Positions 2,104 to 29,044 of a stretch of DNA of 64,000 nucleotides are shown one piece after another (position 1 is the first letter of the stretch; each line of letters opens with the position of its first letter). Source of the DNA: Dehalococcoidia bacterium (GTDB lineage: Bacteria > Chloroflexota > Dehalococcoidia > Lucifugimonadales > UBA3495); NCBI GenBank assembly GCA_034423575.1, contig DAOUIF010000078.1, forward strand, positions 3,865 to 67,864. The letters run 5' to 3'. The notes below the pieces were generated by a model. It saw only the letters and a list, made by a program, of their open reading frames with translations, searched no databases and had not been told where the DNA came from. Both the position numbers and the translations under genes were made by a program.

Positions 2104-2140
2104 CCGAAAACAGCAGGGGCGTCCCAAGCGGACGCCCCTG
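2104..2140 (-). terminator. rho-independent terminator downstream of the LLM oxidoreductase gene
   Basis: Perfect 11-bp stem CAGGGGCGTCC (2114-2124) / GGACGCCCCTG (2130-2140) with a 5-nt loop, followed on the minus strand by TGTTTTCGG. Confidence 0.7.
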
Positions 2141-2169
2141 CACTGTCTCTCAGTGATGCGGACAGACTA

Positions 2170-3336
2170 TCAACTGCGCTGGCGGCTTTCCTCGTAGGCC
2201 TGAGTGGCGCGGTCGAGACCGGCGCGGCGGTTGACCTGGAGGGTGTCACGCAGATTGGACGCCCATTGCTGGGAGGTCTGGATGCCGGACAGGCTGCCCT
2301 GGAATTGGGGCATGACGTACCGGGCCAACAGCTCGTACGACCGGTGCAGCTTGTCACGGGGCGCCCAGTCCTCCACCCGAACCAGCAGCCCACCGAAGCC
2401 GCCGGAAATTTCCTGCAGCTCGTTGATGCGCTGGATGCAGTCGTCGGGCGTACCTACGATCCATTGCTTGTTGTCGGTCATGAAATCAACGATCTGGTCG
2501 CGGGGGACGTCCGGCACTTCGTGGCCGAGAGTATTGCCGAAATACTCGGTGACGACACGGGCGGAGCCTTCGCGGATGTCCTCCTGGGCCTGCTTCTTGG
2601 AATCTGCCAGATGGACACCGACTGAAAGGCGCCATTCCTCGCGCTTTACGGTTTGACCGTGCTCGGCGGCGGTCTCCTCCGCGATAGCCCACTGGTCTTT
2701 CAGGCTGGTGGAGCGCACCATGTCCCGGGGGACGCTGAGCGAGATGACACCCGCGCCGTACTTGCCCGCCGTGGTCACGCCAGCCGGCGACTGCACCGAA
2801 GCGACAACCAGGGGGAAGGGCTGCTGGTAGGGGCGCAACTGCAAATGGGCGTCGTGCAGCTCGAACCAGTTGCTCTCGTAGGTGTAAGGCTCATCGCTGT
2901 CCATCAACCGCTTGATGACGCCAAGGGACTCGTCCATCATTTCCCTTTGTCGGGCCGGGTCGATGCCGAACATGTAGGCATCCGACGCCAGGGCGCCGGG
3001 GCCAACGCCCAGCATCACGCGCCCGCGGGTGAGGTGGTCCAGGAGGACCATGCGATTGGCGACCATATAGGGGTGGTGATAGGGGAGGCTCACGACGCCG
3101 GTGCCGAGGCGCAGGTTGCGAGTACGCTCGGCGGCGGTTGCCATGAAGACTTCCGGCGAGGCGATGGTTTCCCACCCGGCGCTGTGATGCTCGCCGACCC
3201 AGGCTTCGTCGTAGCCCAGTTGGTCCAGCCACTGGAGGAGTTCCAGGTCACGCTCAAGGGCCAGGGTTGGGTTCTCGCCGACCCGGTGGAACGGAGCCAT
3301 AAATACGCCAAATTTCATGCGGGCCGGAGCGTTCAT
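2170..3336 (-). CDS. LLM-class (luciferase-like) flavin-dependent oxidoreductase
   Basis: MKFGVFMAPFH...GYDEAWVGEHHS pattern. Start moved to the ATG at 3336 because GAGGAGG sits at 3343-3349. Confidence 0.85.
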   Translation of the reverse strand: MNAPARMKFGVFMAPFHRVGENPTLALERDLELLQWLDQLGYDEAWVGEHHSAGWETIASPEVFMATAAERTRNLRLGTGVVSLPYHHPYMVANRMVLLDHLTRGRVMLGVGPGALASDAYMFGIDPARQREMMDESLGVIKRLMDSDEPYTYESNWFELHDAHLQLRPYQQPFPLVVASVQSPAGVTTAGKYGAGVISLSVPRDMVRSTSLKDQWAIAEETAAEHGQTVKREEWRLSVGVHLADSKKQAQEDIREGSARVVTEYFGNTLGHEVPDVPRDQIVDFMTDNKQWIVGTPDDCIQRINELQEISGGFGGLLVRVEDWAPRDKLHRSYELLARYVMPQFQGSLSGIQTSQQWASNLRDTLQVNRRAGLDRATQAYEESRQRS

Positions 3337-3421
3337 CGATTGCCTCCTCATGTGGCTATGGGAAATTCAAGGTCGCTGGATGCGTCATTCTAACACGCAG
3401 GGTCGCAGCATCGGGCGACGG

Positions 3422-4096
3422 TCAGAAGGCGCGGGGTGGCAGTACCCGGCGGTAGACCCCAGGCGAGCCCGGTGCGTGGCCGTACGTTCCGCCAATGTAC
3501 TCATGCATCGTGTCCTGGCGACGCTGGTTCTCCCACGCCAGGGTTTCCGGCACTTTTTCGTGCTCGAATTCGTACATCGTCAGGTATTTGGGAGCGCCTT
3601 CCACGGCGTGATACCGGCGAACGTGGAGGCAGCCTGGAATCTGCAGGTTTGCCGGCGTGCGCACCGTGTCGTAGTACTCGTTATACTTGGCCTCGATGTC
3701 GGCCGGAACATCCATCCGGCCGATCTGCAAGGCGGGTGCCATCCCTCTCCCCAGGGTGTGTGGGTCGCTTTCGTCGGGATAGATCTGGGTGCAGGCGAGG
3801 CGCACGGTGCCCCGCCCCACCACGTTGGGGGACATGCGCCTGGTCCACTCCGTAGGATTCTGGCTCATGCGCAGGTATTCGTCCGTGTGCAGAGCGTCGA
3901 CAGTCTCCAACTCGTACACCGCCAGGTAGCGCGGGCCGCCGCGCAGCGCTTCGTAGCGGGCGGCGTCCAGGAACCCGGGAGCGCTGAGGCGTTCCGGTAC
4001 GTGTTCTTCGTTGTACCAGGCATTAAATTCGGCGTCGTTCTCAATGTCGACGTCGGTGAAGACGATCAACAGAGCGGAACCCTTTTTCTTGGCCAT
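3422..4096 (-). CDS. duplicated EthD-like / dimeric alpha-beta-barrel domain protein, function unknown
   Basis: 224 aa with two internal modules (FNAWYNEEHVPERL..PGFLDAARY and YNEYYDTVRTPANL..PGCLHVRRY). Confidence 0.6.
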   Translation of the reverse strand: MAKKKGSALLIVFTDVDIENDAEFNAWYNEEHVPERLSAPGFLDAARYEALRGGPRYLAVYELETVDALHTDEYLRMSQNPTEWTRRMSPNVVGRGTVRLACTQIYPDESDPHTLGRGMAPALQIGRMDVPADIEAKYNEYYDTVRTPANLQIPGCLHVRRYHAVEGAPKYLTMYEFEHEKVPETLAWENQRRQDTMHEYIGGTYGHAPGSPGVYRRVLPPRAF

Positions 4097-11214: not shown

Positions 11215-13842
11215 ATGGTTTTCAGCGCATTTGAGATGGCGCGGTCGCGTGTCGACGCACTGCGACTCAAAGCCCGTCTGCCTGAGGTTCGCTTCGGCCC
11301 CGTCGAGTGGGTCTTTTTGCTGGTCGCGCTCGTGTCAGCCGCCATGCGGTTGTGGGAGCTTGACGGGCGGACGATGCACTACGACGAGGCCATCCACCTG
11401 CACTTCTCGTGGAAGCTTGCCCGGGGTGTCGAGTACATTCATTCGCCTTGGATGCACGGGCCCTTTCAGATCGAGCTGGTGGCGGTCGTCCTGAAATATC
11501 TGGGAGACACGGATTTCCTGGCCCGATTGCCCTACGCTCTCTTCGGGGTGAGCCTGACGGTCTTGCCCTACTTCATGCGCCGGCTCATTGGCGACAAGGG
11601 CGCGGTCTGCGCGGCGGTTGTCCTGGCGTTTTCCCCATCGCTGCTGTACTTCAGCCGGTTCGGCCGCAACGACATCCTGATGGCGGTGTGGGCCGTGCTG
11701 TTGTTGATCATGCTCTGGCAGTACGGGATCAACAGCCGCCGCCGCTACCTGTTCGGTGCCGCCGCGGTGACCGCGCTAATGTTGGCGACCAAGGAGACGG
11801 CCTACTTCGTCATCCTGTTCATGGGACTGGCAGCGTTGGCGTTAGGTTGGCGGGAGTTCTGGGAGTTCATCAAGACACGGCGCGGACTGGCGGGAATGAG
11901 GGGGGCGGCCGGGTTTTTCATCCTGGTGGCGACGTTGACGCTGCCCCAGGCGGCCGCGTTGATCGCGCTGGTTCAATCACCATTCGGTCTGACCATCGCG
12001 TCCCGCGACACGGGATCCACCGGGGACACGGGAGCGCCGGTATGGGAGGCGCCCTTCGTCACGTTGCCGGTGTGGGCAGCGCCCGTGTGGCTGCACGTAA
12101 TGGCGGCGGGCGTTCTGGTCGGCTTTGGATTGGCGCTGGCGATGTGGCTATGGCGTATCAGGGGCCCGATCGACCTCTTGTCAGTCGCCGTGGCGATACT
12201 GGCTACCGTTGCCGCGGTGTCGGTGGTGGTGGTCGGACCCATGCAAAACCTGCTCGCGGCGTTGGGGGAGACGGGAGGCGGATCCGCCGCCGCCTTTGCG
12301 GACTGTGGCGTAGGCGCGGTGATCTTGCTGCTGGGCATTGTGGCCCTGAGACTGAATCTCGCATCGACTGTCGGATGGCGGGGCGTCATGCTGTTGTTGG
12401 GGCCCGCCATCCTGCTGACATGGGCCTGGCTGACACTTCTGTGGGGTGGCGCCGATTTCATCAGCCAGATGCTGCCCGCAACTGTCCCTGCCGAAGATCT
12501 GGCCGCAGGTCGCCTTGCGGTGAACTACCTGGTCCCGGTGCTGGCGCTGTTGATTTTGCTGGTAGTGGGCGGTACGGTCGGCATCGCCTGGGGAGGAGGG
12601 CTCTGGTTGGGGTGCGCGGTGGTCTTCTATGCGATTTGGACGATGCTCTACACCACCGTGTTCACCAACTGGGCCGGCGTCTTCACGGGGTCATGGCAGA
12701 GCTTGGGTTACTGGCTGATGCAGCAGGACGTCGCCCGCGGCAACCAGCCCTGGTACTACTACTTCGTTGGGCTGACCGTGTACGAACTGGTGGCCTTTGC
12801 TTTCGGCGCGGTCGGCGTCGTATGGCTGGTCAGGAATCGGGCCACCTATGGTGGGATGGGCATTGTGCTGGCGGCGTGGGTGATCGCGACTTTGGCGTTG
12901 TACACCATTGCGGCCGAAAAAATGCCCTGGCTCCTGGTCAACATAACCGTACCCCTGGCGTTGGTGGCGGGGATGTTCCTGGGGCATCTTATGGATGTGA
13001 TCAACTGGGGGGCGCCGAGTCGCAGAGTGGCAATGACGCTGGTGCTCGGTCCCATGTGGTTGGGGATTGCGGTGTGGGTCGCTTGGCTGGCGGCACGAGG
13101 GAACGTCGACACTCTTCCCGTCTGGATGACGGCGCTGATCCTGCTGCCCCTGGCGGTCGCGATCGCCTGCCTGATTCGTCGCCATCGCCAGGCAGCAAAG
13201 GCGACGGTGGTGGGGATAGCGGCCTTGCTCCTGGTCTTTGACGCAGTGGGCGCGGTCAGAGCGGCTTACACCTACGATGATTCCAACGTCGAGATATTGG
13301 CCTATGCTCAGGGTTCTGCAGACCTGGAACACACCTACGCCGAGCTGCGCGAGACCGCCTTGGGCGAAGGCGCGGCCGATGCGTCGGTCAAGGTCGATTA
13401 CGACATGTGGTATCCCTTCCAGTGGTACGTGCGGCACGAGACGGAAGCGGGTAGCCTGCAGTTTGACCGTTTCTGCGCCGCCACCAGCGACGAAGACGAA
13501 GAGAAGCAGAGCGAGAAGAGAGACTGCCGTCCGGTGGGCGAAGACACCGGTCCCCAAATCTATCTGGCCGAGCATGGCCACGCGGTGGAGGAAGAGGACG
13601 CGCCGGAGTACCGCAAAGAAGGGCCCATGCGGAATCTGCTATGGTATCCTGAAACTTACCGTCGGCCCGGAGAGTCGCGAACCAGCACCGGATTATGGAA
13701 GCAAATGAAAGCCGACGTGTCCTTTTTCCGAAACGTGGGTTCCAACCCGGACAAACTGCGACAGGCGCTGGAATACATCCTCGCGCGACGCCAGGACAGT
13801 GATTGGTATTCCGCGAGCTATTACCAGTACGCCAAGGAATAG
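11215..13842 (+). CDS. GT-C fold glycosyltransferase-like polytopic membrane protein (PMT_2/ArnT-like, TIGR03663-type)
   Basis: 875 aa with N-terminal MHYDEAIH...SPWMHGPF...FSRFGRNDI and many TM helices. Confidence 0.75.
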   Translation: MVFSAFEMARSRVDALRLKARLPEVRFGPVEWVFLLVALVSAAMRLWELDGRTMHYDEAIHLHFSWKLARGVEYIHSPWMHGPFQIELVAVVLKYLGDTDFLARLPYALFGVSLTVLPYFMRRLIGDKGAVCAAVVLAFSPSLLYFSRFGRNDILMAVWAVLLLIMLWQYGINSRRRYLFGAAAVTALMLATKETAYFVILFMGLAALALGWREFWEFIKTRRGLAGMRGAAGFFILVATLTLPQAAALIALVQSPFGLTIASRDTGSTGDTGAPVWEAPFVTLPVWAAPVWLHVMAAGVLVGFGLALAMWLWRIRGPIDLLSVAVAILATVAAVSVVVVGPMQNLLAALGETGGGSAAAFADCGVGAVILLLGIVALRLNLASTVGWRGVMLLLGPAILLTWAWLTLLWGGADFISQMLPATVPAEDLAAGRLAVNYLVPVLALLILLVVGGTVGIAWGGGLWLGCAVVFYAIWTMLYTTVFTNWAGVFTGSWQSLGYWLMQQDVARGNQPWYYYFVGLTVYELVAFAFGAVGVVWLVRNRATYGGMGIVLAAWVIATLALYTIAAEKMPWLLVNITVPLALVAGMFLGHLMDVINWGAPSRRVAMTLVLGPMWLGIAVWVAWLAARGNVDTLPVWMTALILLPLAVAIACLIRRHRQAAKATVVGIAALLLVFDAVGAVRAAYTYDDSNVEILAYAQGSADLEHTYAELRETALGEGAADASVKVDYDMWYPFQWYVRHETEAGSLQFDRFCAATSDEDEEKQSEKRDCRPVGEDTGPQIYLAEHGHAVEEEDAPEYRKEGPMRNLLWYPETYRRPGESRTSTGLWKQMKADVSFFRNVGSNPDKLRQALEYILARRQDSDWYSASYYQYAKE

Positions 13843-21377: not shown

Positions 21378-21414
21378 ACGAAGATTTCGGACTACCATTG
21401 TTTCCGCCCGGCCA

Positions 21415-23733
21415 TTGGCCGGGCTTCCTCGTTATCGAGGATTTGGGCAGCCGACGATGCTGGTATCATGGGGCCAACCTCACCCGGACCCAGTTTCACC
21501 AGCCATGGCAACGGCGCATACTTACACGCCTGAAGGGCACCGCCTGGACGCGTTCCTGGTGGGAATGTACGCCGGCCATCCCGATGCCCAGGGATTGCCC
21601 TCAGCCCGAAGAGTGGCGGCGATTGCTGCTGAACTTCTCGAGTCTTGCGACTTGGATCTCGATGCGACGGTGGTGAACACTGCGGCTCTACTGCATCTGG
21701 TGGGCCGTCCGAATGATCCGGACCGTGCGGACGGGTCGGTTGGACTGGGTGTTGCATGGCTGCGTGGTGCGGGGGCGCCAGAACCATACGTGGCGGCGGT
21801 AGCGAGGGCGATCGCGGGAGCTTTGTCGGAAGCTCCTGTGCTCGATCTCGATTTTCGGCAAGACGACAACGGCAAGTTGCTGCGGGACGCCGCGCTGCTG
21901 GACTTGGCGAGCGTTGAAAGGCATTCCGATTACTTGCGAGACGTGCCGCCGCCCGGACGGCTTCGGGAGACATACCTGGCGGAATATCGCCGCGAGTGCT
22001 TGACGCCGGCGTTGCAGTTGCGCGGCATGTTGACTCTGCCGGCGGCGTTGGAAATGTATTCCCAGCGCATACCCAAATTGTCGGCGTGGCTGGATGAACA
22101 GCCGGCCAATTTGGTCCCATCGGATTGGCGGCGCCTGGTGGAAGTGGCGGAGATCGAGAGCGGGGTGGACAGGTTGCTGGCCGGCGAAGATCCGGCGGCG
22201 GTTCGGGCCGAAATGCCCGCCGGGGGGCTGCCCTACGCGGAGTATCGGGGGCGGCAGCGGGCCATCATTGCCGGGAGTCACGACCGGATCCTGGGACTGA
22301 CCCATGCTCGCATTGAGGCGTCGCGCAACGTGGCCGCGGAAAAATACCTGGAAAGCGACACGATTCACAAGCCGGCGGTGGAGGAAAACCTGTTCGTCGG
22401 CGCGCGTCGTCGGGCCCGGCAATTGGGCTTGTCTGCGGAGACGGCGGAGGACATCGCCAGGCTGTTGCTTTCCAACGCCCGCGAGGCGCAGGAGCGGACC
22501 CTCAACGACATTGCCCAGCGTTTGAGCCGGTTGCACGGCCAGATCCTGGATGCGGAATCGCCGGAATCTCGCACCGACGAGGCTGACATAGCGATCCCTT
22601 CCCTGGTGGTTCGCACCGGGGACCAGCCGCTGGCCCGCGAGAACGAACTGATCAAGGAGCTGCGCGTCACCGGGCTGAATGAGGCCTACCCGGAACAGAG
22701 ACGCCGGTTCATGGAGTGGTTCGACCCGCCGCATCCCTACATGGAAACCGGGATGACGGTGGGCAGCAGGGACGCTGACATCTTCATGCAGTCGCTGATT
22801 GACGGCCAGCGGTGCAAGGTCGTGACGACGGTCGCCATCGACGGGCCGCCGCACTTGGGCCATGGGACTATCGCCAGCATGCTGGCGCATTTTCAGACAA
22901 TGGGCGCGGAGGTGACCATCGGTTTTCGCGACGAACTTGGCGATCTCGAAGAGGCGCGGCAATTGATGCACGACCACCTGTCAGCTATGGCAGCCAGCGA
23001 CCTGAATCTGGAGCGTGTCGACGCCTACCTGCAGCAGGACAGTCCCTCGATCGTAAGGACGGCGTTTGAACTGGGCGAGGCCATCCCGCTGAGCGTGTTG
23101 AACTCGGCGCTCGGACTCCGGTTGCGGGACAGCGCAACCGACACCTTCCGGCCGCTCCTGCGGCTGGCCGACATTCTGCACTTACAGCAACAGGAATGTG
23201 GCGGCCCTTGTAGGACACTGGTCCTCGACGGCATCGGCGGCGATGTGTACGTGCGCATGGCGCGCAACGTGGCCGATCGGTTCGGGTTCCTCAAGTCGTC
23301 TGCTTTGTATCTGCGCCCGTTGCGAAATCTGACCACCTACGAAGACCCGCGGACCGGCGACGCGGTGGAGGTCATGACCAATCGGGTCCCGCCCGGCCGC
23401 ATCACGTATAACGACGATCCGGCCGAGATCCGGCGACGCATCGGCCGGGCATACACCGGTGGCCGCGGCACGCTGGAAGAGCAGCGGGAGAAAGGTGGCA
23501 ACCCCGATCCGAGGGTCTGCTCAGTGTCCAGTCTGCACGCCTTTTACACCACGCCGGACCCGAAGGAGTACGGAGAGTTGCAAACGCGGTGCCGTGCGGG
23601 CGAGTTGCTGTGTGGGGATTGCAAGGCGTACGCGGCAGACCGCCTGCTAGAATATTTCGACCGGCATCGGCGCGAACGGGAGGGGATCTCCGACGAGAGG
23701 GACGCCCGGCCCGGTTTCCTAGCCGGCGCGTAA
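21415..23733 (+). CDS. three-module fusion: degenerate HD-like + chorismate-mutase-like + TrpRS-like (HLGH present, KMSKS replaced by VMTNR)
   Basis: See findings. The start is uncertain (TTG 21415, ATG 21457 or ATG 21505). The gene is 24 nt upstream of trpS on the same strand. Confidence 0.6.
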   Translation: MAGLPRYRGFGQPTMLVSWGQPHPDPVSPAMATAHTYTPEGHRLDAFLVGMYAGHPDAQGLPSARRVAAIAAELLESCDLDLDATVVNTAALLHLVGRPNDPDRADGSVGLGVAWLRGAGAPEPYVAAVARAIAGALSEAPVLDLDFRQDDNGKLLRDAALLDLASVERHSDYLRDVPPPGRLRETYLAEYRRECLTPALQLRGMLTLPAALEMYSQRIPKLSAWLDEQPANLVPSDWRRLVEVAEIESGVDRLLAGEDPAAVRAEMPAGGLPYAEYRGRQRAIIAGSHDRILGLTHARIEASRNVAAEKYLESDTIHKPAVEENLFVGARRRARQLGLSAETAEDIARLLLSNAREAQERTLNDIAQRLSRLHGQILDAESPESRTDEADIAIPSLVVRTGDQPLARENELIKELRVTGLNEAYPEQRRRFMEWFDPPHPYMETGMTVGSRDADIFMQSLIDGQRCKVVTTVAIDGPPHLGHGTIASMLAHFQTMGAEVTIGFRDELGDLEEARQLMHDHLSAMAASDLNLERVDAYLQQDSPSIVRTAFELGEAIPLSVLNSALGLRLRDSATDTFRPLLRLADILHLQQQECGGPCRTLVLDGIGGDVYVRMARNVADRFGFLKSSALYLRPLRNLTTYEDPRTGDAVEVMTNRVPPGRITYNDDPAEIRRRIGRAYTGGRGTLEEQREKGGNPDPRVCSVSSLHAFYTTPDPKEYGELQTRCRAGELLCGDCKAYAADRLLEYFDRHRREREGISDERDARPGFLAGA

Positions 23734-23757
23734 ACGTCCAGGGAGGCTGTCTCCGAA

Positions 23758-24774
23758 ATGGCAAACCAGCAACGAATTTTGACCGGCATGCGACCCACCG
23801 GGCAGTTGCATTTGGGGCACTACCTGGGTGCCCTGGAAAACTGGATACAGATGCAGCACGAGTACGAGTGCTTTTTCCTCATTGCCGACTACCAGGCGAT
23901 GGGGGATCACCTGGACGACATCGGTCTGATCCAGCGTTCCGTACTCGAGGTCGCCACCGACTGGCTGGCCGTGGGCCTGGACCCCGAGAAGTCGGCCTTC
24001 GTGATTCAGAGCTATGTGCCGGAGCACGCCGAACTGACCATGTTTTTCTCCATGCTCATGCCGTTGAACCAGCACCAGCGGAACCCGACACTGCGGGCCG
24101 AGACGGCGCAACTGGAAGCGGAAAACCAGTCCATCACCCTGGGGTTTTTCAACTATCCCATCAGCCAGGCCGCCGACATCCTGCTGCCCAAGGCCCACCT
24201 GGTGCCGGTAGGGGAGGACCAGGTGGCGCACATCGAGTACACGCGCGACGTTGCCCGGCGGTTCAACCGTCTGTACGGCGAGGTGTTCCCGATCCCCCGA
24301 GCCAGGGTGGGGCGCGTGCCCCGATTGGTCGGTACCGACGGCCAGGCCAAAATGAGCAAGAGCCTGAATAACGCCATCTACCTGGCCGACGGCCCGGAAG
24401 CAGTGGAGGACCGGGTGCGACGGATGGTCACCGACGTAACCGGCGAAAATCCCCGATTGCGGGCCACGGATCCGGGCGTTGTGGAATACAATCCTGCGTT
24501 TCTGTACCACGACGCGTTCAACGATAACGCCGACGAGGTGGCGGAGCTCAAGGAGCGGTACACCGCCGGAACGGTGAGCGACCGCGAGGTAAAGGAACGC
24601 CTCACGGCCGCGCTCAACCAGTTCCTGGAGCCGATCCGCGAGAAGCGGTCTTGGTATGAGGAACATCCGGATTTCGTGCGCGACGTACTGAAGGAGGGTA
24701 CAGAGCGGGAACGGGCAATCGCGCAGCAGACCATCGAGGACGTTCGCCAGGCGATGCAGGTGGTTTACACCTGA
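23758..24774 (+). CDS. trpS: tryptophan--tRNA ligase
   Basis: 338 aa with TGQLHLGH (HIGH) and KMSKS both present; GGGAGG upstream. Confidence 0.95.
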   Translation: MANQQRILTGMRPTGQLHLGHYLGALENWIQMQHEYECFFLIADYQAMGDHLDDIGLIQRSVLEVATDWLAVGLDPEKSAFVIQSYVPEHAELTMFFSMLMPLNQHQRNPTLRAETAQLEAENQSITLGFFNYPISQAADILLPKAHLVPVGEDQVAHIEYTRDVARRFNRLYGEVFPIPRARVGRVPRLVGTDGQAKMSKSLNNAIYLADGPEAVEDRVRRMVTDVTGENPRLRATDPGVVEYNPAFLYHDAFNDNADEVAELKERYTAGTVSDREVKERLTAALNQFLEPIREKRSWYEEHPDFVRDVLKEGTERERAIAQQTIEDVRQAMQVVYT

Positions 24775-24823: not shown

Positions 24824-24853
24824 GGGGCAACCGCAGGGTTGCCCCTTGTTTTG
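24824..24853 (+). terminator. rho-independent terminator of trpS
   Basis: GGGGCAACC, GCAG loop, GGTTGCCCC (perfect 9-bp stem) followed by TTGTTTTG. Confidence 0.85.
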
Positions 24854-24960: not shown

Positions 24961-24987
24961 GGGGAATTACCGGGATAAGTTGACAAA
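24953..24987. repeat. left target duplication (CAAATATT) plus left terminal inverted repeat of the transposon
   Basis: 24955-24987 AATATTGGGGAATTACCGGGATAAGTTGACAAA matches the reverse complement of 27810-27842 at 30 of 33 positions (hand count). Confidence 0.8.
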
Positions 24988-25008
24988 GTAGCGTTCCGCC
25001 GGTAGCAT
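24980..25008 (+). promoter_or_regulatory. inward-facing promoter in the left IR driving the MTase-HNH gene (leaderless geometry)
   Basis: TTGACA (24980-24985), 17 nt, TAGCAT (25003-25008), then 6 nt to the ATG at 25015. Confidence 0.55.
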
Positions 25009-25014
25009 CGCCGC

Positions 25015-26587
25015 ATGGCTGCCGCTACCCGAAATTTCGCCAATCGTACCCTTTTTCACGGCGATAATCTACCCTTCCTGCGGGGCATGAACTCCGGGAC
25101 GGTCAACCTCATCGCCACCGATCCGCCGTTCAACAAGAACAAGGACTTCCATTCCACCCCGAACAGCCTGGCCAGCGGCGCCCGCTTCGTTGACCGCTGG
25201 GCATGGGAGCGCGACGTTCACCAGGATTGGGTTGACGCCATCAAAGACGACTGGCCCGGCGTCTGGCAGGCCATTGAGAACGGGCGGGTCAACCACTCGG
25301 AGGGCATGGCTGCGTTCCTGTGCTGGCTCGGCATCCGGCTGATTGAGTGCCGGCGCGTGCTGGCCGACGACGGCAGCCTGTACCTGCACATCGACCACAC
25401 CGCCCACGCCTACGCGAAGTGCCTGCTTGACGCCATCTTTGGCCGACGCAACTTTCGGAACGCGATTGCATGGCAGCGCAATGATGGCCGGGGCAAGGGC
25501 AGTCAGCACAACCCGAAATCATGGGGGTCGAATACTGACATCCTACTGTTTTATGCCAAGTCTGAGCGGGGGGGTAAAACCGTTCCGGGAACTCACCGCC
25601 GAAGAAGTGGAGGCGAAATTTCCGCGCACTGATGAAAACGGCCAGCGTTTCTATGCAGGGATCCCCGTGTTTTGTTCGCAGTCAATGGGGGCACGCCCCA
25701 ACCTCTGCTTTGAGTGGCGCGGGTTCCGCAATCCGCATCCGAGCGGTTGGCGGTTGAGCAAGGAGCGTCTGGAAGAGGAGTACCAGAAAGGCAACGTCGT
25801 AATCCGACCTGACGGCAAGTTGGAACGGCGCAAGTATCTTGACGACTATGAGGGCATCCCTGTTGATGATTTTTGGGGAGACATCCCGCGCTTGACGGAT
25901 GGCAACGAGCGTTCCGGCTACCCAACGCAGAAACCCCTTGCGTTGTACGAGCGGGTCATCGCGGCCAGCAGTAACCCCGGCGATCTGGTGCTGGACCCGT
26001 TCGCGGGCTGCGCCACCACGCCGGTAGCGGCGGAGCGGCTGGGCCGGCAGTGGGTCGGCATGGACATTTGGGACGGGGCGATTGACGAGGTGCGCCGCCG
26101 CATGGCGGATAGCCGCCAGTTGCTCACCGACGCCAACCCCCAGATCATCTATGCCACCATCCCGCCGGAGCGCACCGACGGCGACGACGGCGACGACGAC
26201 GGCCCCGAGGTTCCCGACCTGGTGCTGCGCCCGCAACGTCAGCCGGAACGCTGGGAACGGCTGTCCCACGCCGAAATGCGGGATATTCTGGCGACTGCCC
26301 AGGCCAACGGAGATAGCGTCGTTTGCGCCGGTTGCGGGATACAGCTGCCCGTGCGCTACATGGAGCTGGACCATATCACGCCGCGCAAGGACGGCGGCGA
26401 GAACGTCATCACCAACCGGATACTGCTGTGCGGGCCGTGCAATGGGGCGAAGTCCGCCAACCTCACGCTGTCGGGGCTGGTGCGGCACAACCGGCGGTTG
26501 GGATTTGAAGTAGATAGGGGCTTGGCGGAACTGGCCGCCAGCCGAGCGCGGGACGCTGCCCAGCGTTGCCGGGATACGATACGCTGA
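25015..26587 (+). pseudogene. beta-class N6-adenine/N4-cytosine DNA methyltransferase fused to a C-terminal HNH endonuclease domain; frameshifted at a G7 run
   Basis: DPPF (motif IV) precedes VLDPFAGCATT (motif I). YPTQKP is present, and the HNH signature reads CAGCG...DHITPRKDGGE...NRILLCGPCNGAKS. ORFs 25015..25632 and 25343..26587 meet at GGGGGGG (25568-25574). Confidence 0.85.
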
Positions 26588-26795: not shown

Positions 26796-27758
26796 CTACA
26801 CCCAACCGAATTGCCCGGTGCGGCTCATGCCATTATCGGCGGTGAGGTCGGCGTAGGTCAACCTCTTGCCGATGCAACCGCGCACCAACGCAGCCATTTG
26901 GTCGAGCGTGTCGCTGGGCCGTTTGTTGAACCGGCCCTCGAACTCGGCTACGTAGCGGTCAAGATGCTTGACCGACATCCAGTGATAAATCCCGGTGTAG
27001 CCGCGCTTGAGCAATGCCCAGAACGATTCCATCCCGTTGGTGTGCGCCATGCCCTTGACGAACTCGCCCACGGAGTGCGTAACCGTTTCGTGCCGGCGGT
27101 TGAGCCGGTTAAACACCCGCGCTTCATCGGTGAATACCAGGGTAGTCGGCTCCGTGCGCTGGTGAACGAACTGCCGCATGGTGGGGCCGTCTTCGTGCTC
27201 AATGACTTTGGCGTCCACCTTGCCAGTTTCGCGGTCTTTGACGCCGGCCACCGGGGTTTTGCCGACTGCGCCGCGCCCCTGGTGCTTGCGCTTGGATTCG
27301 TGCTTGTTCTTCTCAACGCCACCGATGAACGTCGTATCGGATTCCACCGGGCCGGAGAAGACCGGATCGTCGCCAGCCATCGCCGCGCGGATACGATGTC
27401 CCATGTGCCAGGCCGAACCCTGGTGTATGCCCAGGTCGCGGGCCAGTTTGGTAGAGCTGACGCCCTTCAGGTTGGTGCAAATCTGATAGAACGCGATAGC
27501 CCACTTGCGGAGCGGGATTTTCGAGGATTGCATCACGGTTCCGAACTTCACGGAGAAATACTTGCGGCAATCGGAGCACCAGTAGGGCATCGGCTCGGCG
27601 TTGGGAACTTCGCTGGTGTTTTCGCCGTCGCAGCGGGCGCAGACGCGGCCATTGGGCCAGCGGATGGACTCAAACCACGTCTGGGCAGCATCATCGTCCG
27701 GGAACATCTCGAACAGGTCAATCAGGGTAATGCCCTTGCGAAAACTCTTACCGGCCAT
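26796..27758 (-). CDS. IS1595-family (ISXO2-like DDE) transposase
   Basis: N-terminal zinc ribbon CARCDG...CSDCRKYF, then VESDTTFIGG, VFTDEARVFNRL and HTNGMESFWALLKRG...HLDRYVAEFEGRFNKR. Confidence 0.92.
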   Translation of the reverse strand: MAGKSFRKGITLIDLFEMFPDDDAAQTWFESIRWPNGRVCARCDGENTSEVPNAEPMPYWCSDCRKYFSVKFGTVMQSSKIPLRKWAIAFYQICTNLKGVSSTKLARDLGIHQGSAWHMGHRIRAAMAGDDPVFSGPVESDTTFIGGVEKNKHESKRKHQGRGAVGKTPVAGVKDRETGKVDAKVIEHEDGPTMRQFVHQRTEPTTLVFTDEARVFNRLNRRHETVTHSVGEFVKGMAHTNGMESFWALLKRGYTGIYHWMSVKHLDRYVAEFEGRFNKRPSDTLDQMAALVRGCIGKRLTYADLTADNGMSRTGQFGWV

Positions 27759-27788
27759 AGCGATTCACCATCCTTGATTGCTGGGATG

Positions 27789-27817
27789 ATGATAGCAGGC
27801 TAGGGCGGGTTTGTCAA
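27789..27817 (-). promoter_or_regulatory. inward-facing promoter in the right IR driving the transposase
   Basis: Minus strand: TTGACA (27817-27812), 17 nt, TATCAT (27794-27789), about 30 nt upstream of the ATG at 27758. Confidence 0.55.
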
Positions 27818-27842: not shown

Positions 27843-29044
27843 GCATCGTTGGGGTGGGCGAAACCGAGTACAGCCGGGCCTCGGGACGCACCACCCGCGC
27901 CCTGGGCGCCGAGGCGATCCGCAACGCCATGAACGACGCCGGCCTGACGCCCGACCAGGTGGACGGGATGCTCAGCTACCACGGCGGCGACTCCACGCCG
28001 TCGACGTCGATACAGTACGACCTGGGCATCCGGCCGAATTTCTACATGGACTGCTCCGGCGGCGGGTCTTCCACGGAGGCGCTGGTGGGTTTGGCCATCG
28101 GTGCGATCGAGGCGGGGATGTGCGACGTGGTGGCGATTTTCCGATCGATGAACGGCTACTCCAACGTGCGCATCGGAGGCACCGGCGCGCGGGCGTCGGC
28201 TCCCATCGGCGGGCTGGACCTGATGAAGCGGCCCTACGGCCTGATCAGCGCCGTGCAGCAATTCGCCTACACCTTCACGCGCCACATGGCCGAGTACGGG
28301 GTCAAGAGCGAAGATCTGGCGGCCATCAAGGTGGCTCACTCCATTCACGCCTCCAATAACCCCAAAGCGCTGATGAAGCACCGGGTGACCGTGGACGACG
28401 TGATTAACTCCCGGTGGATCATCCGGCCGGTGGCCCACCTGTTGGACTGCTGCCTGGAAACCGATAACGCCACCTGCGTCATCGTCACTTCCGCCGAGCG
28501 GGCCCAAGACCTGAAGCACAATCCGATCTACATCAAAGGAGTGCAGGGTCGCGGCACCAAGCCCGGCGGCGACTTCCACTACCAACACGGGCCGATCTCG
28601 CGGGTGGCCGGCCACTATATCGCGCCGCGCATTTTCGATCTGGCCGGCGTAAAGCATGAGGACGTTGACATCACCGGCTGCTATGACGCCTTCACCTACA
28701 CCGTGTTGCTGCAGTTCGAGGACTACGGCTGGTGCGAGAAGGGCGAGGGCAAGGACTACGTGACCAGCGGCATCATCAACCTGGGTGGCAAGCGGCCCAA
28801 CAACCTCAGCGGCGGGCACCTCTGCGAGGGGTACACGCACGGGATGAACATGGTGATCGAGAACGTGCGACAGCTACGGGGCACTGTCGATGACTACTGC
28901 CCGGGCGCTTTGGAAGGCGACCACACCTACGAGTACGCCGAGGGAGGCTGCCGCCAGGTGAAGGATGCCAAGATCAGCATGAACATGGGTTGGGGGACGC
29001 CGGCCGTCGGCAGCGCGCTCATCATGGGCAACGTGCTCAGCTGA
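27843..29044 (+). pseudogene. thiolase-like protein (SCP-x / DUF35-associated type), body of a gene decapitated by the transposon
   Basis: ...IVGVGETEYSRASGRTTRALGAEAIRNAMNDAGL...; followed by its usual DUF35 partner. There is no SD or canonical start upstream of GTG 27854. Confidence 0.75.

Follow-up and report, generated by a model that had tools for sequence, protein, structure and literature searches.

What is encoded by a gene that joins a chorismate mutase-like domain to a tryptophanyl-tRNA synthetase (TrpRS)-like domain and stands immediately upstream of a complete trpS? The question is raised by the 64,000-nucleotide (nt) stretch analyzed here, hereafter the window, which covers positions 3,865 to 67,864 of the forward strand of contig DAOUIF010000078.1 (assembly GCA_034423575.1) from a Dehalococcoidia bacterium of the Chloroflexota. 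A preliminary description, made from the sequence without database searches, had noted a 772-amino-acid (aa) open reading frame (ORF) before trpS and had divided it into HD-like, chorismate mutase (CM)-like, and TrpRS-like modules. We find a 742-aa protein, here called the fusion, in which the CM domain is under the strongest constraint and the synthetase-derived half is predicted to have lost its chemistry. We tentatively favor the reading, plausible rather than probable, that the fusion is a chorismate mutase gated by tryptophan status through its ex-synthetase domain.

Domains and relatives of the fusion protein

The 772-aa ORF lies at 21415..23733 (+), and its stop codon is 24 nt 5' of the 338-aa ORF at 23758..24774, as first described. 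The start at 21415 did not hold: this TTG sits within a conserved hairpin (21406-21424), and the real start is therefore the ATG at 21505, 30 codons farther on. The ATG is supported by a database protein of 742 aa that is 100% identical and by the consensus N terminus of the family. The TTG was rejected as a start, its position in the upstream alignment of related loci being inside the terminator-like hairpin of the upstream gene. Residue numbers below are those of the 742-aa protein; adding 30 converts them to the 772-aa numbering of the preliminary description. The coding sequence, its domains, and its motifs are as follows (dN/dS, ratio of nonsynonymous to synonymous substitution rates; counts out of 120 refer, here and throughout, to family cluster representatives).

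21505..23733 (+): fusion coding sequence, 742 aa, stop codon included; supported by the identical database protein and by 51 of 53 intact orthologous ORFs
21505..22218 (+): residues 1-238, all-helical domain of predicted HD fold lacking the metal site, from AlphaFold 2 (AF2), Foldseek, and profiles
22219..22551 (+): residues 239-349, AroQ (CM_2, PF01817) chorismate mutase domain of three helices, from profile comparison with CM structures
22552..22629 (+): residues 350-375, conserved linker, 91% mean identity across orthologues, dN/dS 0.05
22630..23730 (+): residues 376-742, archaeal-type TrpRS-like domain with N-terminal extension, Rossmann core, and anticodon-binding domain
22852..22863 (+): HLGH, residues 450-453, the retained HIGH motif (H450 120/120, G452 108/120, H453 102/120)
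23164..23178 (+): LADIL, counterpart of the prokaryotic AADIL (D556 108/120)
23230..23244 (+): GIGGD in place of the G-x-D-Q-D motif (D578G, Q579G)
23371..23385 (+): VMTNR in place of KMSKS, from alignment to the KMSSS of Aeropyrum pernix
23518..23622 (+): C-x23-C-x6-C-x2-C motif of the anticodon-binding domain (C672, C696, C703, C706, each in at least 119/120)

All three modules were recovered, by tRNA-synt_1b and PRK12285 for the TrpRS-like part, by CM_2 (just under its cut-off in the window protein and above it in relatives), and by HDIG, structure 2pq7, and Foldseek for the HD-like part. The accompanying claim that every module is catalytically altered stands for the HD-like and TrpRS-like domains but not for the CM domain, whose catalytic core is invariant.

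In the CM region, the family profile matches structures 5ts9 (E value, 2.1e-6), 1ECM (2.6e-5), and 6al9 (1.1e-4), and the NCBIfam models give a weak match to the CM region of the T-protein. A profile alignment with 1ECM places R252, R269, K280, E293, and Q329 on Arg11', Arg28, Lys39, Glu52, and Gln88 of the Escherichia coli chorismate mutase (EcCM), and all five are invariant (120/120). The earlier assignment of Arg282, Arg299, Lys310, and Glu323 (772-aa numbering) to EcCM Arg11, Arg28, Lys39, and Glu52, with Val322 at the position of Arg51, agrees with this alignment. The AF2 monomer has helices at 242-283, 286-307, and 311-349 in the AroQ topology, with predicted local distance difference test (pLDDT) values of 42 to 69. 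The catalytic constellation of a chorismate mutase is intact, and the CM domain is the constrained and probably the catalytic part of the protein because its five catalytic equivalents are invariant and its dN/dS is 0.043. The linker that joins it to the TrpRS-like domain is not resolved in the model (pLDDT of <50 over residues 336-373), and its conservation points to a possible role at the domain interface.

Selection was assessed from pairwise dN/dS (NG86, 250 pairs), for which dS was 1.0 to 1.5, i.e., near saturation, so that the ratios are approximate. The value for the whole fusion was 0.15, and those for its parts and for the neighboring gene were as follows.

HD-like domain: 0.21
CM domain: 0.043
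linker 350-375: 0.05
TrpRS N-terminal extension: 0.08
TrpRS catalytic core: 0.17
anticodon-binding domain: 0.16
neighboring trpS: 0.058

The ranking is clear: constraint on the CM domain equals or exceeds that on an essential gene, and none of the domains shows decay. Intact full-length ORFs are present in 51 of the 53 orthologues, whose mean identity is 73% for the fusion versus 89% for trpS. Pseudogene status was rejected on these ratios (0.04 to 0.21 in every domain).

The TrpRS-like domain passes the Pfam tRNA-synt_1b cut-off (25.0 bits versus 21.1; E, 1.4e-5) and is matched far better by the archaeal-type NCBIfam model PRK12285 (2.7e-48) than by the bacterial TIGR00233 (2.8e-22). It misses the equivalog cut-offs of both (PRK12285.1-2, 164.8 versus 451 bits; TIGR00233, 79.4 versus 176.75). 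The closest solved structures are the TrpRS of A. pernix (3a04, 6e-32) and Pyrococcus horikoshii (2e-21); in Foldseek, 3a04 is matched at an E of 1.3e-20 with a TM score of 0.84, and the best structural matches are archaeal and eukaryotic. By profile and fold, the domain is best regarded as an archaeal-type TrpRS paralog. The preliminary description had aligned it with the neighboring TrpS; the class I fold is indeed shared, but there is no closer kinship, the fusion domain being of archaeal type and bearing four conserved cysteines. Its origin as a copy of the adjacent trpS was rejected on the two NCBIfam scores and on the archaeal and eukaryotic identity of the nearest structures.

Motif loss was judged against 68 stand-alone archaeal-type TrpRS, in which 43 positions are at least 80% conserved. 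At 17 of these 43 positions the fusion family differs, and the differences cluster at the active site (TGxxPSG, D-x-E, GxDQDP, and KMSSS). The stand-alone motifs and their counterparts in the fusion family are as follows.

TGxxPSG, before HIGH: T..IDG
D-x-E, the Glu after strand 2: shifted, D476-E477-L478
Q-x-ADIL: R-L-ADIL
VPxGxDQDP: V(L/I)DGIGGDV
R-D, after GxDQDP: R-N
KMSSS: VMTN(R/A)

In the stand-alone enzymes the GxDQ pair is D in 94% and Q in 93%, and the KMSKS site is K in 94%, M in 99%, and S in 96%. The fusion family has G578 in 118/120, G579, D580, and V581 each in 120/120, and N588 in 119/120 at the former, and V623 in 114/120, M624 and T625 each in 120/120, and N in 118/120 at the latter. 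The replaced active-site residues are fixed, not drifting. The strings quoted at first (GPPHLGHG, RLADILHL, GIGGD, ARNVADRF, and VMTNR) all occur in the fusion, and the loss of KMSKS is confirmed by the A. pernix alignment. In class I synthetases, loss of the KMSKS lysine together with the GxDQ pair should abolish or cripple adenylate formation.

Other features of a TrpRS are kept. In addition to HLGH, R584 and R587 (each 120/120) and the TGG and GG-x-P motifs are retained. We take the Asp of the AADIL motif (Asp132 in Bacillus stearothermophilus), as a lead, to be the indole-contacting residue of prokaryotic TrpRS, to which D556 of the fusion would then correspond. A conserved Asp (Asp136 in Thermotoga maritima) contacts N1 of the tryptophan indole in these enzymes (PMC2954223). 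Mapping of the human TrpRS tryptophan contacts (Tyr159 and Gln194) onto the fusion was dropped, as the A. pernix-type subgroup lacks them too. In the anticodon-binding region of T. maritima TrpRS, a C-x(21-24)-C-x6-C-x2-C motif binds a [4Fe-4S] cluster (PMC2954223), and the Cys4 motif of the fusion fits a predicted place in this Fe-S-cluster TrpRS subgroup.

The HD-like domain is modeled with a pLDDT of ∼90 in the full-length protein and 87.5 alone. Its top 10 Foldseek matches all belong to the HD superfamily (probability, 1.0; E, 2e-3 to 3e-2; TM score, 0.50 to 0.71) and include YpgQ (5dqw), 2pq7, and YedJ (3gw7), all three with TM scores of 0.55 to 0.71, as well as SE1688 and 2pjq; its profile matches the HD hydrolase 2pq7 at an E of 1.1e-3. 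The HDIG (NCBIfam TIGR00277; E, 5.9e-4; 19.6 bits) and Pfam HD (PF01966; E, 0.021; 15.5 bits) models remain under their cut-offs of 27.6 and 22 bits. The dead site reported earlier was found again in the 2pq7 alignment: Pro32/Ala33 stand where the first metal His would be, His64-Leu65 takes the place of the HD doublet, and the later His ligands are missing, leaving the C-terminal "DAxxLD" Asp133 (119/120) as the only metal ligand kept. The domain is predicted to be an HD fold without a metal site and catalytically dead, and metal-dependent hydrolysis is not expected of it because the ligands are absent.

A word-indexed protein search returned 147 proteins at an E of ≤1e-3. The best 120 of these are 64 to 100% identical, 645 to 789 aa long, and named either "hypothetical protein [Chloroflexi/Chloroflexota bacterium]" or "tryptophanyl-tRNA synthetase." When 185,579 species, each represented by one genome, were scanned with a CM-plus-linker signature drawn from a five-sequence alignment, 53 species genomes were found, all metagenome-assembled genomes of Dehalococcoidia/Chloroflexota, including a SAR202 bin and several bins with names in the style of sponge studies. 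Synteny with trpS, which the preliminary description had asked about, is nearly universal: trpS lies 3' of the fusion on the same strand in 52 of the 53, of which ∼10 have lost the upstream gyrA-hydrolase synteny. The sole genome without trpS within 6 kb downstream (L048; OZ241860.1, 3' of 7677) also lacks the promoter-like 12-mer described below, and a local rearrangement is suggested there because most of the long ORFs (≥120 aa) that come next after the fusion have the opposite orientation.

The fusion-trpS spacer is 24 nt in the window and ranges from 2 to 900 nt across related loci. In ∼20 related genomes a spacer of ∼385 to 440 nt (e.g., L003, L007, L009, L020, L022, L027, L033, L038, and L044) encodes conserved small peptides in the same orientation, predicted to be membrane peptides. 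One, of ∼55 aa, begins MKEFFLNxCITPxQTAAYCExQYQTL and continues into a hydrophobic helix; the other, of ∼65 to 70 aa, contains GSVCYEWTERTExFWPKALLRTLxWFWIG and two hydrophobic stretches. Some spacers encode both peptides and others one, and the first is also carried by L021, L032, and L037 (spacers of 248, 632, and 900 nt). Both are absent from the window.

More distant relatives came from an exhaustive HMMER search of 1.84 billion cluster representatives. The long relatives P0122 (54%), P0124 (48%), and P0132 (36%) share the homologous N-terminal domain; next after both P0124 and P0132 comes a trpS of bacterial type (TIGR00233, 282 and 251 bits, respectively). The short forms P0127, P0128, P0130, and P0159 (524 to 547 aa) consist of CM and TrpRS only, without the HD domain. 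On a 26-kb contig, P0295, a member of the P0127 cluster, is followed on one strand by trpB, trpA, and trpS, all above their NCBIfam cut-offs (566, 147, and 251 bits). The stop codon of P0159 overlaps a gene for a helix-turn-helix and ACT protein that matches the TrpY family (E, 9e-35, under the model cut-off); TrpY is an archaeal tryptophan-responsive repressor. An archaeal origin is suggested for this contig because of the TrpY-like neighbor and the low G+C content (0.36). The family is thus linked with genes for tryptophan or chorismate in several neighborhoods that are independent of one another.

The short forms are known from single short contigs, and they are rare, as a homologue search with P0128 recovered only stand-alone archaeal TrpRS. 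A metagenome scan with P0159 found no further short forms, and one with an alignment of P0127, P0124, and P0122 found two loci only, neither informative. P0128 itself (L054; JGI 3300000227 contig, 2114-3459, −) lies tail-to-tail, at 2 nt, with members of two chorismate-using families, Rv2949c-like (chorismate pyruvate-lyase) and VitK2_biosynth/MqnA (chorismate dehydratase), according to precomputed Pfam matches.

The synthetase motifs form a series among these relatives, given below as the HIGH, GxDQ, and KMSKS sites.

P0128: HLGH, GIDQDPYMR, RMSSS
P0159: HLGY, GVDQVP, KMGNK
P0127: HLGH, GLDHDV, KMSSG
P0122/P0124: HIGH retained, G(L/I)ERD, (V/T)MT(A/G)
window family: HLGH, GIGGD, VMTN

A rough neighbor-joining tree places the short forms basally, followed by P0127, P0124, P0122, and the SAR202 family, the same order as that of motif erosion; P0159 and P0132 are unstable in it. 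One subsample, without bootstrapping, nested 15 stand-alone TrpRS inside the fusion clade and another split them cleanly, and with the subsamples in disagreement we do not claim a single origin for the fusion TrpRS-like domains. A plausible history would begin with a CM-TrpRS fusion, then a working synthetase, that entered bacteria; it would have come into a row of trp genes beside a bacterial trpS, which took over charging; and it would then have gained the HD-like domain, lost synthetase chemistry, and been retained for another role.

Possible gating by tryptophan and the alternatives

In the reading that we favor, the synthetase-derived half would no longer make tryptophanyl adenylate or charge tRNA. 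It would dimerize in the manner of TrpRS and thereby assemble the obligately dimeric AroQ domain; AroQ enzymes need a dimer, and TrpRS is one. It would also sense tryptophan sufficiency, the signal being the indole or tryptophan moiety, free or on tRNA-Trp, and would gate the mutase such that chorismate is sent to phenylalanine and tyrosine only when the tryptophan supply is adequate. The HD-like domain would be a noncatalytic accessory, acquired later. The putative indole-contacting Asp and the HIGH motif favor a small ligand in the old active site; tRNA as the signal is favored by the N-terminal extension, which is well conserved, and by the anticodon-binding domain, which is complete and bears the Cys4 motif. 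A tryptophan or tRNA-Trp sensor at the chorismate branch point would fit the trpBA-trpS and TrpY-like neighbors of the relatives, and such gating would gain importance were the mutase coexpressed with trp genes. A narrower version, in which the charging state of tRNA-Trp, or tryptophan itself, switches the mutase directly through a dead, Fe-S-bearing TrpRS domain, we consider doubtful. If true, the fusion would be a bacterial metabolic counterpart of GCN2, with a pseudosynthetase that reads translation demand and sets aromatic flux at the branch point. It would also be the first pseudoenzyme of TrpRS descent to act outside translation, and the Fe-S cluster could add a redox input.

Several observations weigh against tryptophan gating. 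The window protein scores 23.6 bits (E, 6e-5) with Pfam CM_2, under the cut-off of 27, which the relatives P0132 (36.6), P0130 (34.9), and P0122 (27.2) pass. Three positions of the EcCM pocket are changed, all invariantly (Asp48 to Lys289, Arg51 to Val292, and Ser84 to Ala325), and because of these differences the CM domain could be weak or serve in ligand binding only; the distant relatives P0124, P0132, P0130, and P0159 have Arg at the Arg51 position. The CM helices are modeled with low confidence, as is expected of an intertwined AroQ dimer modeled as a monomer, and the domain arrangement is uncertain (predicted TM score, 0.53). D556 is replaced by Gly in 10 of 120 members. The D-x-E Glu is shifted or lost and the GxDQ Gln is gone; we presume from the human enzyme that these two residues contact the α-amino group, and their loss would disfavor binding of tryptophan in the canonical pose. 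Finally, gene displacement in situ could have left the fusion next to trpS, in which case the two need not be coupled today.

One alternative is an ordinary housekeeping chorismate mutase for which the ex-synthetase and HD-like parts are a dimerization or solubility scaffold that senses nothing. The CM domain is by far the most constrained (0.043 versus 0.16 to 0.21 in other domains), an AroQ enzyme requires a dimer and TrpRS is dimeric, and the canonical ligand contacts of the synthetase have gone. A scaffold, however, hardly accounts for purifying selection on ∼600 residues in 53 species or for a linker conserved at 91%; the invariant GGD and VMTN replacements and the retained HIGH, ADIL Asp, and four cysteines exceed what folding needs, and the linkage to trp genes persists in distant relatives. 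We regard this explanation as unlikely. Rather less likely is a nonenzymatic regulator, in which the CM-like domain senses chorismate or prephenate and the TrpRS-like domain binds tRNA-Trp, TrpRS, or mRNA and so tunes charging or trpS expression. Its appeal lies in the tight, ancient pairing with trpS, in the preserved anticodon-binding domain and Fe-S ligands with an N-terminal extension at a dN/dS of 0.08, and in the absence of any T-box or other known leader RNA that could regulate trpS from the window and 10 related loci. Moreover, some 3-deoxy-D-arabino-heptulosonate 7-phosphate (DAHP) synthases use CM-like domains as prephenate-binding regulatory domains. Yet all catalytic residues of the mutase are kept, including the transition-state stabilizers, which is more than binding needs, and a heterodimer of an archaeal-type with a bacterial-type TrpRS seems unlikely.

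The fusion might instead be a second functional TrpRS joined to a mutase, e.g., an isoform that tolerates stress or resists an antibiotic. Genomes with a duplicate TrpRS gene have been described (TrpRS II and the indolmycin-resistant copy; PMC9437257). The fusion keeps HIGH, the anticodon-binding domain, and the fold as a whole, and the short forms P0128 and P0159, with near-complete motifs, may be true CM-TrpRS enzymes. For the window family this is improbable: nearly all members have other residues in place of the KMSKS Lys, the GxDQ Asp-Gln pair, PSG, and the D-x-E Glu, the NCBIfam TrpRS scores given above are far under their cut-offs, and a complete bacterial trpS adjoins. A tRNA-dependent transferase that passes tryptophan from Trp-tRNA-Trp to a chorismate-derived acceptor held by the CM-like domain would explain why the indole-contacting Asp and the tRNA-binding half were kept while the adenylate-forming residues were lost, and cotranscription with the TrpRS that makes the substrate is suggested by the spacing, ribosome-binding site, and terminators. 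The class Ic-like cyclodipeptide synthases use aminoacyl-tRNAs (PMC9437257). Such an enzyme is nevertheless purely speculative and, we think, very improbable; no tailoring or export genes are nearby, and AF2 gives no confident juxtaposition of the two pockets. Least credible of all is the idea that the fusion is what remains of an archaeal-type trpS that the bacterial gene displaced, now decaying into a pseudogene. Adjacent TrpRS-type genes of different origins fit displacement in situ, and the fusion evolves faster than trpS (73% versus 89% mean identity), but the intact ORFs in 51 of 53 orthologues and the low dN/dS in all domains effectively refute it, as do the fixed substitutions and the conserved promoter-like element.

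The transcription unit and its surroundings

The elements that flank the fusion and trpS are as follows.

21406..21424 (+): GC-rich hairpin GCCCGGCC-ATT-GGCCGGGC with a T-rich tail, conserved in aligned upstream regions of 39 loci
21441..21469 (+): promoter-like element, −35-like ATTTGG (21441-46), 17-nt spacer, and extended −10 TGgTATCAT (21461-69)
23740..23746 (+): AGGGAGG, ribosome-binding site for trpS in the 24-nt spacer, read from the sequence
23758..24774 (+): bacterial-type trpS, 338 aa, HLGH and KMSKS intact, from the TIGR00233 profile
24824..24845 (+): terminator-like hairpin (9 bp, 7 G-C) followed by TTGTTTTG, a consensus match only

In its form, the upstream hairpin resembles a terminator of the alpha/beta-hydrolase gene that precedes it; the T-rich tail reads TTTTGCGT among relatives, and the window has TTCCTCGT. 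The block GGATTTGG-(17 nt)-TGGTATYAT is conserved in the alignment of the same 39 loci and resembles a −35 plus an extended −10; the promoter-like role given to 21441-21469 rests on this consensus and conservation. The 12-mer TGCTGGTATNAT (≤1 mismatch) occurs 43 to 49 nt 5' of the ATG in 49 of 52 loci and is kept in 9 of 10 loci with a different upstream gene. A second copy (≤1 mismatch) is found at 27779-27790 (+), 75 nt 5' of a thiolase-like ORF (27854..29044), and because of it the 12-mer may be a general −10 promoter region of the lineage, not specific to the fusion-trpS unit.

The neighboring gene is the canonical trpS that it was first taken for (TIGR00233, 303.8 bits versus a cut-off of 176.75; Pfam tRNA-synt_1b, 231.9 bits). 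The statement that a terminator appears only after trpS also holds, since no strong terminator-like site other than the hairpin at 24824-24845 follows the pair on the + strand. The fusion and trpS are apparently cotranscribed, in the order promoter-like element, fusion, trpS, and terminator, given their spacing, the ribosome-binding site, and the flanking terminator-like hairpins. Searched at Rfam gathering thresholds, neither the window nor any of 10 related loci gave a T-box or another known leader RNA.

Beyond the trpS terminator lies a DNA methylase split over overlapping frames (25015-26587, +). The ORF at 25015..25632 matches N6_N4_Mtase positions 1 to 109, and that at 25343..26587 (+) matches positions 115 to 217 and adds an HNH nuclease domain; the arrangement reflects either a frameshift in a methylase-HNH gene or an error of sequencing. 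Just 5' of it, at 24980-25008, is a match to a sigma-70-like promoter (TTGACA-17-TAGCAT), and an IS1595-family transposase gene (DDE_Tnp_IS1595 with a zinc ribbon; 26796-27758, −) adjoins the methylase. A lineage-specific mobile insertion right after the trpS terminator is suggested, because the methylase has no counterpart 3' of trpS in the 53 related loci, the sole match (41% identity, in L024) being 5' of the fusion, and because of the adjoining transposase. Elsewhere in the window, an 875-aa ORF at 11215-13842 (+) has no Pfam match at an E of 1e-5 or better.

Comparison with known systems

The preliminary description knew of no characterized protein with this architecture, and we likewise found none: literature searches for a CM-TrpRS architecture returned co-mentions only, no curated NCBIfam model names the family, and the table of a 2022 review of synthetase paralogs (PMC9437257) contains no TrpRS-derived nonsynthetase member. 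Each domain comes from a known superfamily, with the TrpRS-like and HD-like domains failing the defining tests of functional membership. The fusion would be a synthetase-derived pseudoenzyme coupled to a biosynthetic enzyme, which is not a categorically new kind.

Relatives of the single parts are readily named. The N-terminal domain has the helical fold of the YpgQ/YedJ-type HD phosphohydrolases but lacks their first His, HD Asp, and later His ligands. The Fe-S or archaeal-type TrpRS (A. pernix, 3a04; T. maritima, 2g36) share their fold and Cys4 motif with the fusion, which differs from them in lacking KMSKS, GxDQ, PSG, and the D-x-E Glu and in having ∼375 extra N-terminal residues; it offers a new setting for the unexplained role of the [4Fe-4S] cluster in some TrpRS. 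Deinococcus radiodurans TrpRS II and the indolmycin-resistant TrpRS are, like the fusion, second TrpRS-type genes beside a standard one in the genome, but these duplicates are active with intact motifs, whereas the fusion is predicted to be inactive. The P-protein (CM-prephenate dehydratase), the T-protein (CM-prephenate dehydrogenase), and CM-DAHP synthase likewise join an N-terminal AroQ domain to a protein of aromatic amino acid metabolism; in them the partner is a pathway enzyme, and in the fusion it is a synthetase paralog.

Control of this branch point by tryptophan has precedents. The regulatory site of the Aro7 and plant chorismate mutases lies in a duplicated AroQ fold at the dimer interface, while the candidate sensor of the fusion is a whole ex-synthetase domain. 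Aro7 and the plant AroQ enzymes act at the same branch point as the CM domain of the fusion, and their activity is raised by tryptophan, as documented for the yeast enzyme (PMC4458059).

The closest parallels to the whole arrangement are HisZ and GCN2. HisZ, a paralog of histidyl-tRNA synthetase (HisRS) without adenylation activity, mediates histidine inhibition of HisG (PMC9437257). Like the fusion, it is a synthetase paralog recruited to control an amino acid biosynthesis enzyme, but it is a separate, class II subunit that controls the first step of its own amino acid's pathway. HisZ also lacks the anticodon-binding domain. The fusion is derived from a class I TrpRS, keeps the anticodon-binding domain, and is covalently joined to a partner that heads the competing phenylalanine/tyrosine branch. 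In GCN2, a dead HisRS-like domain fused to the effector binds tRNA and reports starvation via uncharged tRNA; as is predicted for the fusion, a catalytically dead synthetase-like domain is covalently joined to an effector enzyme. GCN2 differs in being eukaryotic, in having a kinase as the effector, and in sensing many tRNAs through its HisRS-like domain, whereas tRNA binding by the fusion is hypothetical.

The nonaminoacylating synthetase paralogs are a small, well-studied set (HisZ, AsnA, PoxA/EpmA, GluQRS, MshC, the cyclodipeptide synthases, and the GCN2 domain). To this set the fusion family would add a TrpRS-derived member, joined to an enzyme that competes with the tryptophan branch for chorismate, in organisms that are abundant in the deep ocean and in sponges. 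If tryptophan gating is true, it would be a direct, protein-level link from translation (tRNA-Trp or tryptophan status) to the partition of aromatic flux. The natural series from an apparently intact CM-TrpRS to the fully disabled form makes the conversion of enzyme to pseudoenzyme testable. The pattern of the regulatory paralogs is found in the fusion (synthetase fold kept, adenylation residues lost, and effector covalently attached), as a likeness and not as homology.

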